This document shows positions 1-23,211 of a stretch of 23,284 nt of DNA, in pieces. Position numbers and translations under genes: made by a program. How positions within the stretch are numbered: the stretch's first letter is position 1; every line of letters starts with the position of its first letter. Under the pieces are notes generated by a model. That model did no database searches, had not been told where the DNA came from, and saw nothing but the letters and a program-made list of their open reading frames with translations. This stretch comes from a virus. The stretch lies in UHGV virus genome UHGV-0204798. One strand, 5' to 3'.

Positions 1-64
1 CGCAAGGTGTTTTAACAAATCAAAAGGGGTTTTAATAACTGGCTCAAAGCTGAAAGCTTTCCGG

Positions 65-89
65 AACCCCCAGCCTAGCCGGGGGTTTT
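65..89 (+). terminator. Terminator-like GC hairpin (AACCCCC-N9-GGGGGTT) followed by TTTC
   Basis: Perfect 7-bp stem at 65-71/81-87 with a 9-nt loop; the T run forms the 3' side of the stem. A second 7-bp hairpin (CGGGTGC-ATA-GCACCCG) sits at 104-120. Oriented for plus-strand transcription entering from the left. Confidence 0.35.
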
Positions 90-7722: not shown

Positions 7723-7793
7723 GTTAGTTCCTTGGAAGTTACTGACATAGAAGCCCGATTTGTGTTCGCGCACTGTCGGGCTTCGCTATTTTT
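7723..7793 (+). ncRNA. Candidate ~70-nt antisense RNA covering the ant RBS (sar-like)
   Basis: Predicted start about 7 nt after the -10 element. Ends at a 9-bp hairpin GAAGCCCGA/TCGGGCTTC (7750-7758 / 7776-7784, 17-nt loop) followed by GCTATTTTT (T run 7789-7793). Complementary to the ant Shine-Dalgarno (plus 7729-7733) and the arc-ant intergenic region. Confidence 0.4.
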
Positions 7794-7959
7794 ATGTCCT
7801 AGCATTCTTCTCTCCAATCAGTCCGTACACTTTTCTCAATTGATAAACAAGTTCCGTGTTGAACTGTCGACACTCTTTTTCTCCATTTCTTTCAATCGCC
7901 TTCCTTACATCCTCTGGGAAACGAACCTTGCGTTGATACATGTCTTTTGCTTTTTCCAT
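7792..7959 (-). CDS. arc: Arc-like ribbon-helix-helix DNA-binding protein (55 aa), not in the ORF track
   Basis: Codon-by-codon reading of the minus strand from ATG (plus 7957-7959) to TAA (plus 7792-7794) gives MEKAKDMYQRKVRFPEDVRKAIERNGEKECRQFNTELVYQLRKVYGLIGEKNART. AAGGAG Shine-Dalgarno 5 nt upstream. Beta-strand (KVRFP) then two helices, the RHH pattern of P22 Arc. Sits immediately upstream of ant. Confidence 0.6.
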   Translation of the reverse strand: MEKAKDMYQRKVRFPEDVRKAIERNGEKECRQFNTELVYQLRKVYGLIGEKNART

Positions 7960-7976
7960 CTCCACTCCTTAAATAG

Positions 7977-7989
7977 CCTCACTGTGGGG
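7977..7989. promoter_or_regulatory. Operator-like imperfect palindrome CCTCACtGTGGGG
   Basis: 11 of 13 positions symmetric. Lies in the 5' leader of the leftward arc-ant transcript, between the -10 element and the arc Shine-Dalgarno. Confidence 0.45.
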
Positions 7990-7997
7990 TAGTCAAA

Positions 7998-8026
7998 ATT
8001 GTCACACCGTGCGTCATTGAAGTCAA
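7998..8026 (-). promoter_or_regulatory. Candidate leftward promoter for arc-ant (Pant-like)
   Basis: Minus strand reads TTGACT (plus 8021-8026), 17-nt spacer, TGn-GACAAT (plus 7998-8003). Its -35 overlaps the -35 of the divergent rightward promoter. Confidence 0.45.
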
Positions 8027-21793: not shown

Positions 21794-22337
21794 TACCAAG
21801 CTCCTTCAGTTTCTCTTCAAGTAACTCTTCTGACATATCGGCATAACGAACAGGCCCGCCATCAGCGCCAGTTATTTCTGTAGATGTTTGCTCTTTAAAC
21901 GCCTGAACAGAAACATGCTTACCAAGAAGTTCGAGGTTTTTGACCTTATCAGGCCATTTGATTTTCTTCAGAAGTGCGGCGCTATCTGCGGATACCATCT
22001 CCACGACATCCATTCCTGATAGCGTTGTGCGCCATACTTTAGGCCAGTCTTTGATGGGTTTTAGCTCACCGTTTTGCAGGAGAATGTCAAGCACATCCAT
22101 CTGGTCGATTTCAACCAATCTACGAAGAACATAGGCGGCATCTATACCCGTCTGCTCAACGCGGGCAGATTTAAGTTCAGCAACGAATTTTTGAACATTA
22201 ACATTTGCTAATAATCGAGATGCCTGCTCATTGGCGGTCTTCTCGCTGTAGCCCGCCCTGATAGCTGCCTGTGTGCCGTTCAGATCTTTCAGGTACTCAC
22301 GGGCAAACAGCTCTTGTTTGTCGGTGAGCTTTGCCAT
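21747..22337 (-). CDS. Terminase small subunit
   Basis: 196-aa ORF with ATG at 22335-22337, overlapping the large terminase start. N-terminus MAKLTDKQELFAREYLKDLNGTQAAIRAGYSEKTA... is typical of small terminases. Confidence 0.75.
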   Translation of the reverse strand: MAKLTDKQELFAREYLKDLNGTQAAIRAGYSEKTANEQASRLLANVNVQKFVAELKSARVEQTGIDAAYVLRRLVEIDQMDVLDILLQNGELKPIKDWPKVWRTTLSGMDVVEMVSADSAALLKKIKWPDKVKNLELLGKHVSVQAFKEQTSTEITGADGGPVRYADMSEELLEEKLKELGNGRRSNQLESKRSDL

Positions 22338-22692
22338 TATTTGTGCTCCGTTTATCCGTTAAAAGGGATATCAGTTAAGTTATCCCGTGCAGGGTATAAG
22401 CTATTGTCGAGACCACTCATTGAATGGTCTCTGCAATAACCGATGTCTTTCCATCAGTCCGCCACCACAAAGAATCTTTTTTGCCATAAGGCTGGAGGTT
22501 CATCTTTCAGTGGCTGCCAGTGTTATTTCCCCACTTACTGGCTTGGGTTGTTTCGCGGTACTGCCGTTAACTGGTGGCGCACAGATTGAGTTAAATCCGT
22601 TCTCGCATGATCCAGCTTTTACATACCCGGATTGTGGGGATGTAAATCACGGTTTCATTATCAAGCCCACCCGTAGATGGGCTTTGGAATGG

Positions 22693-23211
22693 TCACTTTG
22701 GCAGTCCGGGGATCGATATTTGCGCCTGCTGCTCAAGCCTTTCGATTCTTGCTATGAGTTGCGGTTTTTTGATCCTGCCCCAGCGGTTCAGCAAGCGTCC
22801 TGACATACTGGCAACATCCTTTTCCTTCATGAACTCCAGCATTAACTCGTTGTGCTCTCTTTGGTATGAGTGAGCCATCTCCATCAGCCTGTCACGCATC
22901 CAATTAAATGCTTTGATAAACGCCTCTTTGATGGCGGCAGCTTTTTTGCCGGTAAACGACATGATGATGTACATCGCGCCGTCTTTGGAAATTTCATATT
23001 CAACATACTGATTACCCTTGTGTTCATAGGTAACCCGCGAAAAGTTGCTGGTTAGAAATTCATCCGAACAGTCTAGCTTTTCGATTTTCTGAATGATGTG
23101 GTGATGCTGCTTGTCGAAGTAAGCTGCTACCTTGCGGGAGGTTGTGATCACGCGATCACCAGAAACAACCACCATGTCCCGGAAATCGAGATTAGCCAAT
23201 TGATGATTCAT
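22693..23211 (-). CDS. Rha-family phage regulatory protein
   Basis: Track ORF 22693-23247 (GTG start). The ATG at 23209-23211 gives MNHQLANLDFRDMVVVSGDRVITTSRKVAAYFDKQHHHIIQKIEKL..., an N-terminal pattern I recall from Rha proteins. Sits upstream of the terminase genes. Confidence 0.6.
   Translation of the reverse strand: MNHQLANLDFRDMVVVSGDRVITTSRKVAAYFDKQHHHIIQKIEKLDCSDEFLTSNFSRVTYEHKGNQYVEYEISKDGAMYIIMSFTGKKAAAIKEAFIKAFNWMRDRLMEMAHSYQREHNELMLEFMKEKDVASMSGRLLNRWGRIKKPQLIARIERLEQQAQISIPGLPK

Follow-up and report, generated by a model that had tools for sequence, protein, structure and literature searches.

Introduction

Several described elements resemble the locus treated here, some in what they do and others in how they behave in genomes. 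By analogy, its closest counterparts in function would be the intergenic RNase III hairpins of phage T7 and the intercistronic stabiliser hairpins; its closest counterparts in genome behaviour would be the PeSL cassettes of phage T4, the attC sites of integrons and the boundary sequences of lambdoid phages. RNase III hairpins (T7 R-sites, and those of the lambda N-leader and sib) lie between cistrons of a long phage transcript, have upper and lower stems around an internal loop in a helix of about 16–20 bp, and leave a copy on the 3′ side of the upstream cistron, all of which recurs in our locus. The likeness is one of layout, and no similarity in sequence is known: the hairpins described below have a small symmetric 2x2 loop of CA against GA, and a stop codon is often embedded in their lower stem. 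REP-type elements and intercistronic stabilisers (malE-malF), together with Rho-terminated 3′-end hairpins, are likewise stable stem-loops without a U-tract that stand just past a stop codon, on the sense strand only and repeated within an operon. However, the present hairpins belong to a different sequence family, occupy one lambdoid slot instead of being scattered genome-wide (two copies in Sf6), and have conserved flanks and a conserved internal loop.

PeSL and attC are repeated structured motifs that bound small accessory ORFs in a hyperplastic region, with a conserved outer sequence, a variable paired centre and recombinant joints at the motif, as is the case here. Unlike PeSL, the hairpins have no early promoter attached; unlike attC, they come with no integrase and no R′/R″ core sites; and unlike both, they are always oriented in the late-transcript sense. 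The lambdoid boundary or linker sequences (the bsq features of Sf6 and HK620) are short conserved non-coding stretches at module junctions. None of the Sf6 bsq features falls in the interval equivalent to ours, the nearest (bsq7) lying inside Rz, and the element described here additionally shows conserved RNA-type structure.

Here we analyse a 355-bp interval upstream of a small terminase gene. This interval is unlikely to be a site of DNA packaging and is probably a non-coding spacer common to many lambda-like phages.

Results

Position and coding content of the gap

The window, by which we mean the whole 23,284-nucleotide stretch of the virus genome UHGV-0204798, contains the following arrangement.

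Positions 23247-22693, minus strand: Rha-family gene (Pfam matches to Phage_pRha and ORF11CD3)
Positions 22692-22338, minus-strand gene context: the gap, 355 bp, between the Rha gene and terS
Positions 22337-21747, minus strand: small terminase gene terS (Pfam match to Terminase_2)

The large terminase gene (Terminase_6N/6C) and then the portal gene follow 3′ of terS, and all nearby genes are on the minus strand. The Pfam matches bear out the flanking gene names given in the preliminary description, a Rha-like gene upstream and a small terminase downstream. That description also took the gap for the largest gene-free interval of the window, which holds among internal intervals, whereas 382 bp at the window's left edge are longer. 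The left-edge interval contains a truncated STnc490-like RNA; a 750-bp stretch at 7774-8524 holds an Arc-like gene on the plus strand and so is not gene-free.

The inverted repeats first noticed by eye are present: GGGATA-N10-TATCCC at 22365-22386, GAGACCA-N9-TGGTCTC at 22409-22431 and AAGCCCA-N8-TGGGCTT at 22663-22684. On the minus strand TTTT does directly follow the GGGATA hairpin, and GGAG then stands 8 nt before the terS ATG. The three perfect repeats exceed chance expectation: perfect repeats with 6-nt arms and spacers of 3–12 nt gave 5 hits at 3 sites (P = 0.006), and for 7-nt arms P = 0.04, each against 2000 shuffles of the 355 bp. Folding of the whole gap gave z = -4.96 for the late strand and -3.14 for the opposite strand.

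Across about 140 homologous copies of the gap, no ORF is conserved in any frame on either strand. Its plus-strand ORFs of 138 and 48 aa match no Pfam family and vary at both ends among homologues, and the 28-aa ORFs of the late strand are shortened or lose their ATG in a divergent homologue. A hidden small protein-coding gene was rejected, as no frame is conserved and no Pfam family is matched. With no conserved ORF, and with repeats that are kept in relatives and not due to chance, the gap is indeed the real, structured, non-coding region that it had been taken for. ARAGORN reported no tRNA or tmRNA gene in the window, none of 4227 Rfam models reached its gathering score in the gap, and a scan of both strands of the gap found neither a sigma-70 promoter-like site nor a canonical terminator. 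An RNA anti-CRISPR that mimics type I-E or I-F repeats was also rejected; the best local matches are 8 nt long and are equalled in 50–68% of shuffles.

Distribution in lambdoid late operons

A BLAST search with the gap alone gave matches mostly at 90–98% identity: part of it is present in 206 phage records and in 2572 of 5426 complete E. coli genomes (about 47%), 441 of which carry at least 80% of it. The phages matched include P22, phage L, HK620, Sf6, CUS-3, HK106, mEp234 and mEp235 (HK106 and mEp234 being HK97-like), as well as Stx phages, Salmonella siphoviruses and one Klebsiella phage; DLP12 of E. coli K-12 has no copy of the hairpin. In every case examined the module lies in a Q-dependent late operon, behind the lysis genes and any accessory genes and ahead of the packaging genes, as illustrated by a prophage of E. 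coli A41 with the order Q, tRNAs, holin, lysozyme, Rz, Rha, gap, terS, terL, portal. The gene after the leader is usually hkbM (P22 ORF80, DUF2560); in the window it is terS, a fusion of gap and terS that two E. coli prophages share. Homology to the module stops at the RBS or start codon of whichever gene comes next.

The gap is a mosaic, widely conserved, non-coding module of lambdoid late operons. It occurs in much-studied temperate phages (P22, HK620, Sf6, HK97-like and Stx phages), yet the reference records inspected give it no functional annotation: the equivalent interval is unannotated in the records of HK620, Sf6, CUS-3 and HK106, and that of P22 has only a 33-codon hypothetical ORF25. 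Literature searches found no paper with the sequences of the hairpins or of the core block described below and nothing on stem-loops of late operons, and searches on HK620 boundary sequences and on DUF2560 gave no useful result. Alignment of many copies divides the gap into four blocks, named here with the three hairpins (H1 to H3) that they contain.

Positions 22692-22643, minus strand: block A, which contains H1 and begins right behind the stop codon of the upstream gene
Positions 22642-22577, minus strand: block A2, an optional insert of about 66 nt, from the block structure of the alignment
Positions 22576-22442, minus strand: block B, a nearly invariant core of 135 nt, from the alignment
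Positions 22441-22338, minus strand: block C, with H2, H3 and its TTTT, and GGAG, ending at the terS start codon

A two-part hairpin family

Two of the repeats, AAGCCCA/TGGGCTT and GAGACCA/TGGTCTC, are the upper stems of larger hairpins.

Positions 22652-22694, minus strand: H1, alpha type (covariance model R1, 54.5 bits, E 1.5e-12; -18.4 kcal/mol, z -4.7)
Positions 22691-22688 with 22659-22656, minus strand: H1 lower stem, beside the CA/GA internal loop
Positions 22684-22676 with 22671-22663, minus strand: H1 upper stem, closed by a UACG tetraloop at 22675-22672
Positions 22398-22441, minus strand: H2, beta type (R1, 62.5 bits, E 8e-15; -24.6 kcal/mol, z -7.8)
Positions 22441-22434 with 22406-22399, minus strand: H2 lower stem, beside the CA/GA internal loop
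Positions 22431-22422 with 22418-22409, minus strand: H2 upper stem, closed by an AAU loop at 22421-22419

H1 and H2 both belong to one family of 44-nt two-part hairpins, which is apparently undescribed so far. Its plan consists of a lower stem that pairs CCAUUA with UAAUGG (in H2, GGUUAUUG with CAAUAGCU), an invariant 2x2 internal loop of CA against GA, an upper stem of 9–10 bp and a loop of 3–6 nt, for a total helix of about 16–20 bp. We collected 101 distinct instances from 313 sources (the window and 312 loci), hosted by phages of Escherichia, Salmonella, Shigella, Klebsiella, Shimwellia and Serratia, with at least seven upper-stem sequences (AAGCCCA, GAGACCA, AAAGCCA, GAAGCCA, AAGCGTC, GCAGCCC and AUGAGAA).

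The covariance model R1 was built from a seed alignment of such instances. In the seed 96.5% of cells are paired, and both sides have changed in 11 of 15 pairs; the seed hairpins were picked with a pairing filter, to which the lower stem was not subject, and the model-based set agrees with them. In 98 loci R1 gave 134 hits, every one of them on the late strand. By the same model the 23-kb window has exactly two copies, and the complete Sf6 genome has two as well. In the alignment derived from R1 (52 distinct sequences), 94.7% of cells are paired and compensatory change is found in 11 of 15 pairs, values that none of 500 shuffles reached; sliding the partners against each other lowers pairing to 29–52%.

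Pairing is also specific to one strand. On the plus strand H2 scores 17.1 bits with R1, against 62.5 on the minus strand, and the nine upper-stem pairs of the R1-derived alignment include 77 G-U or U-G cells compared with 8 non-standard cells of any kind. Because each G-U becomes a C-A mismatch on the opposite strand, selection acts on the late-sense single strand. As a G-T wobble is tolerated in single-stranded DNA too, this asymmetry alone cannot separate an RNA hairpin from one of single-stranded DNA. The family is thus strand-specific and rich in compensatory change, and it behaves as a structured hairpin. Most alpha copies close with C(UACG)G, a tetraloop of exceptional stability in RNA that is typical of stable RNA hairpins.

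The position of the hairpins relative to genes is equally regular. H1 begins directly behind the Rha stop codon (22695-22693), and in copies of the alpha, gamma and delta types the hairpin usually starts at a distance of 0–13 nt from the stop codon of the accessory gene before it: among 190 distinct contexts of these types, 160 have an ORF of at least 45 codons that stops no more than 40 nt upstream, and in 85 of them the stop codon abuts the lower stem (distance 0). In the types other than alpha, the last two bases of a UAG stop can lengthen the lower stem to 8 bp. The ORFs 5′ of the hairpins are mutually unrelated (rha, kilA/hkbL, gene 65-like, gene 66/Gp49, GIY-YIG and others). Block B always comes before the beta copies, H2 among them. 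Where B is missing, in Serratia-type and other distant phages, the family hairpin stands 16–20 nt upstream of the RBS of hkbM, and this B-less form looks like the ancestral arrangement.

Directly after H1 and H2 comes GAUAAUG or GACAAUA. There is no U-tract, which rules out H1 and H2 as intrinsic terminators. Re-initiation at the AUG of GAUAAUG was rejected since H2 of the window has AUA in its place and the downstream frames are not conserved; a SECIS or read-through signal was rejected since the adjacent stops include UGA, UAG and UAA. Conservation of the lower stem and the internal loop in primary sequence suggests a putative specific partner.

Block B

Helices predicted for block B are as follows.

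Positions 22542-22537 with 22521-22516, minus strand: predicted helix P1
Positions 22514-22509 with 22466-22461, minus strand: predicted helix P2
Positions 22507-22503 with 22473-22469, minus strand: predicted helix P2a
Positions 22492-22490 with 22485-22483, minus strand: predicted helix P2b
Positions about 22457-22452 with 22445-22440, minus strand: predicted helix P3

Alignment columns over B, H2, H3 and the RBS show almost no diversity among loci that a 17-mer within B had picked out, whereas the coding sequence of hkbM downstream is highly variable. We repeated the comparison on 82 loci found through the hkbM protein, 57 of them with B: in 526 pairs with less than 70% DNA identity in hkbM, the median identity of B is 96.9%. 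Block B is far more conserved than the adjoining coding sequence, and its very high identity could partly come from recent horizontal spread instead of constraint.

We found a single clearly divergent homologue of B, on the metagenomic contig L261 (the same as L314 and L315). There, P1 is kept with two compensatory pairs, P2 with two compensatory pairs and two changes from G-U to Watson-Crick, and P2b with a 5-nt insertion in its loop; P3 is partly lost. The internal loop GAUGAACCUCC is fully conserved, even in this homologue. All six compensatory pairs in B come from it, and the predicted fold of B has a z of only -1.05. With one divergent homologue and an unremarkable folding energy, the modelled structure of B is supported but not firmly established.

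Searches for more divergent copies of B gave 6 near-identical matches in genome contigs; in viral contigs and metagenomes, searched with negative-selection patterns, single-base variants and the divergent contig already known; and, through a profile of hkbM, 80 loci whose hkbM is identical or near-identical. Searches seeded with distant hkbM were informative for the hairpin and not for B.

The best sub-threshold Rfam match of the gap is RF03044 (Proteo-phage-1), a candidate RNA of proteobacterial phages, whose unpaired ends (CCccaG ... AAaAACaCCGGCAGCC) resemble the sequence around P1. We rejected membership, as the match covers the model's unpaired flanks alone: it scores 16.8 bits where the gathering score is 42, lacks both internal hairpins (6 + 6 nt where the model has 28 + 26), and has its 3′ segment in a stretch that is unpaired in the model and paired in B. 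The family was also not found in 20 related loci.

H3 and the leader to terS

The third repeat and the ribosome-binding site make up the end of the gap.

Positions 22386-22381 with 22370-22365, minus strand: H3, GGGAUA-N10-UAUCCC (-8.3 kcal/mol, z -3.1)
Positions 22364-22361, minus strand: UUUU after H3
Positions 22338-22349, minus strand: RBS (GGAG at 22349-22346) and spacer before the terS start codon (22337-22335)

H3 lies inside a 36-nt insertion relative to the phage L-type and Serratia-type leaders, which keep H2, the spacer and GGAG. It is missing from 8 of 65 aligned leaders and from distant relatives. Since relatives without the insert have an otherwise intact leader, H3 is dispensable. 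With three G-C pairs, a 10-nt loop and U4 it is terminator-like at best; the terminator scan, whose limits leave out a 10-nt loop and a four-T run, did not report it. The alignment places a mosaic joint at GGAG, with the shared module upstream and gene-specific sequence downstream. Between the CCUCC loop and the downstream RBS (an anti-Shine-Dalgarno pairing) only 4–5 nt are complementary, which is uninformative; GGA motifs of the CsrA type number 8 against about 5.5 expected, as counted by eye.

Insertion joints

In the alignment, breakpoints between blocks recur at the bases of hairpins. Block A2 is present in the window, HK620, HK106, Sf6 and APC_JM3.2, is swapped for about 16 nt in phage L, mEp234 and SPN3UB, and is missing together with H1 from P22 and CUS-3, in which block B comes directly after the rha stop. 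A2 contains two predicted hairpins (22646-22618 and 22606-22577), with a fold z of only -1.3; as read from the alignment, the APC_JM3.2 variant keeps the inner one through a G-U to A-U and a U-A to U-G change.

Genes have entered at several of these points. Gene 66 of Sf6 and genes of the Gp49 family are inserted just 5′ of H2, a DUF551 gene occupies the same interval, which separates the lysis genes from hkbM, and in P22 and BTP1 pid is inserted after H3 on the opposite strand. The pid site has been described as a moron-insertion site at which relatives have no insert or a different one (PMC3573128). Recombinant forms occur as well: in Stx phage 2851 and O157 prophages the alpha hairpin is joined to the leader that follows beta, with A2 and B deleted, and one chimera combines a gamma 5′ arm with a beta 3′ arm. 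In phage L the last 25 nt of hkbL remain as a non-coding relic.

Discussion

We propose that the gap is an untranslated modular spacer that would act in cis, as RNA on the late mRNA, on processing, stability or translation, and that would also serve as a recombination joint, a reading drawn from comparative sequence data to which we give about an even chance of being right. The Q-dependent late transcript, which corresponds to the minus strand of the window, would carry a chain of RNA elements composed of H1, an optional A2, B with P1–P3, H2, an optional H3 with U4, and the RBS. After endonucleolytic cleavage or Rho-dependent termination, the two-part hairpins may set or shield the ends of transcripts, either as processing sites of the RNase III type or by blocking 3′ exonucleases. 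A helix of 16–20 bp with a 2x2 loop would be compatible, if borderline, with the roughly two helical turns of an RNase III substrate. In this way the hairpins would make lysis and accessory genes independent of the packaging genes in their stability and translation. The first packaging gene may have its translation set by a structured 5′ leader composed of B and H2, and H3, U4 and the long untranslated stretch could help to stop transcription without Q modification from reaching the terminase genes. Homologous joints for the insertion, deletion or swap of accessory genes would arise as a by-product of the repeated conserved hairpins.

Were the hairpins to set transcript ends or translation at the junction of lysis and packaging genes, they would be part of the balance of lysis, accessory and morphogenetic expression. 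The element is notable for its prevalence, its covariation and its tie to an accessory-gene slot. It marks the exact point of entry of accessory genes into the late operon, and those found in the slot include pid, rha, kilA, Gp49-family genes, GIY-YIG and HNH nucleases and, in a relative, an Acb2-type anti-defence gene. The hairpins would also be useful landmarks for annotation, for the discovery of accessory genes and for the engineering of insertions that spare late expression.

An alternative that we regard as unlikely is that B and H2, with or without H3, are released as a trans-acting RNA of about 190–240 nt, a regulator of, or decoy for, host or defence factors. The hairpins would then serve as processing signals, and H3 with U4 could supply the 3′ end. 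The extreme conservation of B without coding capacity would suit such an RNA, as would the invariance of its single-stranded GAUGAACCUCC even in the divergent homologue and the frequent presence of accessory or anti-defence genes in the slot (Acb2 in a Serratia prophage, for example). Against this, we found no promoter, the U-tail is short, no Rfam family reaches its gathering score, and Serratia-type and several other relatives keep the hairpin but have no B. Equally doubtful is a joint reading, according to which the hairpins are cassette boundary signals while B and H2 form a free-standing trans RNA of about 190 nt, for instance a decoy. If such a reading were true, each accessory or anti-defence gene in the slot between lysis and packaging would have one 3′-end hairpin, the folded strand or the short arms would allow capture, loss and swap between unrelated phages, and about half of complete E. 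coli genomes would contain an unrecognised, very widespread, RNA-marked slot for accessory genes.

Slightly less probable again is selection of the hairpins mainly as cassette-boundary recombination sites in DNA, with any effect in RNA incidental. Copies stand behind the stop codons of many unrelated accessory genes, their outer sequences are conserved while the central stem varies and stays paired, insertions and deletions fall exactly at hairpin bases, and the alpha-leader fusion of 2851 and O157 and the gamma-beta chimera are recombinants of the kind expected. However, no dedicated recombinase is linked to the hairpins, and simple homologous recombination does not need compensatory changes to be kept up; the UACG tetraloop and the site in the 5′ leader of hkbM suit RNA better.

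It is improbable that the gap consists of decaying remnants of genes and moron terminators, functionless and conserved in appearance through recent spread. Its mosaic make-up with many indels and the hkbL relic of phage L could be read in this way, as could a putative open stretch, running to a stop codon and loosely similar, at the same place in a Shimwellia blattae prophage. Against decay stand a block B that is about 97% identical where the adjoining gene is below 70%, compensatory substitutions in both the hairpin family and B, and a hairpin kept in phages of six host genera, from Escherichia to Serratia.

The cis-acting RNA that we prefer also accounts better for the dyads than a DNA operator, which we consider very improbable. 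The preliminary description had suggested that GGGATA/TATCCC looks like the binding site of a dimeric protein, and a perfect 6-bp dyad with a 10-bp spacer beside a Rha-family gene could serve as the operator of a dimeric regulator such as Rha or a late regulator, as could the other dyads. That dyad is, however, part of the 36-nt insert that relatives lack while keeping the leader; it occurs in many phages without this Rha gene and is missing from close relatives of the leader, and neither strand has a promoter-like site nearby. On the late RNA it reads as a hairpin followed by U4, and a weak terminator-like hairpin explains H3 better than a conserved protein operator does. Conservation in relatives, which had been named as a check on the dyads, holds for those of H1 and H2, which are kept with compensatory changes, but not for the dispensable GGGATA dyad. 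The strand-specific G-U pairs and compensatory changes of the former two indicate a single-stranded hairpin of the late transcript and not a double-stranded operator.

A packaging start (cos, pac or a binding site for the small terminase), which the position of the dyads immediately upstream of terS had suggested, is the least probable reading: the same sequence, 92–98% identical, stands in the same place in phages with unrelated packaging modules, at least four terminase systems among them, and it ends at the RBS of the next gene, pairs in a strand-specific manner with G-U wobble, and can do without the GGGATA dyad. It lies upstream of small terminases of the P22, Sf6, HK97, lambda Nu1 and Terminase_2 types, and its carriers include the headful packagers P22, HK620, Sf6 and CUS-3. 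The pac site of P22 lies within gene 3. These unrelated terminases, together with the distance of the element from the genome end or from the Nu1-like gene, make a cos or pac role very unlikely. In the HK97-like phages HK106 and mEp234 an HNH gene lies between the element and the end of the record, and in the linear record of HK106 the element ends 833 bp before the genome end; in lambda-like O157 prophages about 520 bp separate it from the Nu1-like gene downstream.

Genes on either side of the shared leader

Several E. coli prophages (matches H33-H38, compared with window positions 22301-22800) share homology that reaches 37 nt into the coding sequence of the small terminase gene terS, which follows the non-coding leader here. 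The gene annotated at that place in these prophages is an HNH endonuclease rather than terS. In these E. coli prophages the mosaic joint seems to fall within the first twelve or so codons. The HK97-like phages HK106 (L007, about 1549-1570) and mEp234 (L008) keep only the first seven codons (ATGGCAGAGATTATTCTCATGA) of hkbM, the DUF2560 gene that usually comes after this leader, and their order runs from shared leader through this seven-codon remnant to an HNH endonuclease gene. The remnant seems to be left over from a gene order of the P22 type.

Many automatic gene calls make hkbM 102-129 aa long (proteins P0001-P0008), reaching back into the non-coding leader. Such a leader-extended form is impossible in HK620 because an in-frame stop codon precedes the ATG of hkbM by 15 nt. 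Our guess is that the 102-129-aa calls are over-calls.

Accessory genes enter the slot between the lysis and packaging genes. In a Serratia marcescens prophage (L145, 2371-2652), this slot holds a gene of the Acb2/Tad1-hairpin family, an anti-CBASS/anti-Thoeris family. Between this gene and hkbM is a small ORF that stops just 5′ of a hairpin belonging to the 44-nt two-part family also found in the gap. Several other loci (L241, L242, L246, L261 and L276) carry a canonical intrinsic terminator (GGTCGC...GCGGCC, then TTTTTT) directly 5′ of the hairpin, upstream of hkbM. A terminator abutting the hairpin fits the insertion of self-contained morons exactly at the hairpin base.

Some metagenomic P22-like phages carry extra hairpin copies 700-1100 nt 3′ of hkbM:

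L290, 2105-2147: hairpin family copy downstream of hkbM
L296, 2221-2263: hairpin family copy downstream of hkbM
L277, 2351-2393: hairpin family copy downstream of hkbM

Other features of the window

One gene in the window is opposite in strand to the surrounding, otherwise one-directional structural gene cluster:

8034-8456 (within 7774-8524), plus strand: Arc-like ribbon-helix-helix gene

It is preceded by a 260-bp gap and seems to be an insert of moron or regulatory type.

STnc490 is an Hfq-binding sRNA that was first described in Salmonella. The Rfam model matches window positions 1-87 on the minus strand (85.9 bits; model positions 1-87 of 124), and this match ends at the window edge, where the remainder is cut off. 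Escherichia phages Lambda_ev058 and PhiR63_2 carry the same 100 bp at 99% identity, annotated in both as "hypothetical protein".
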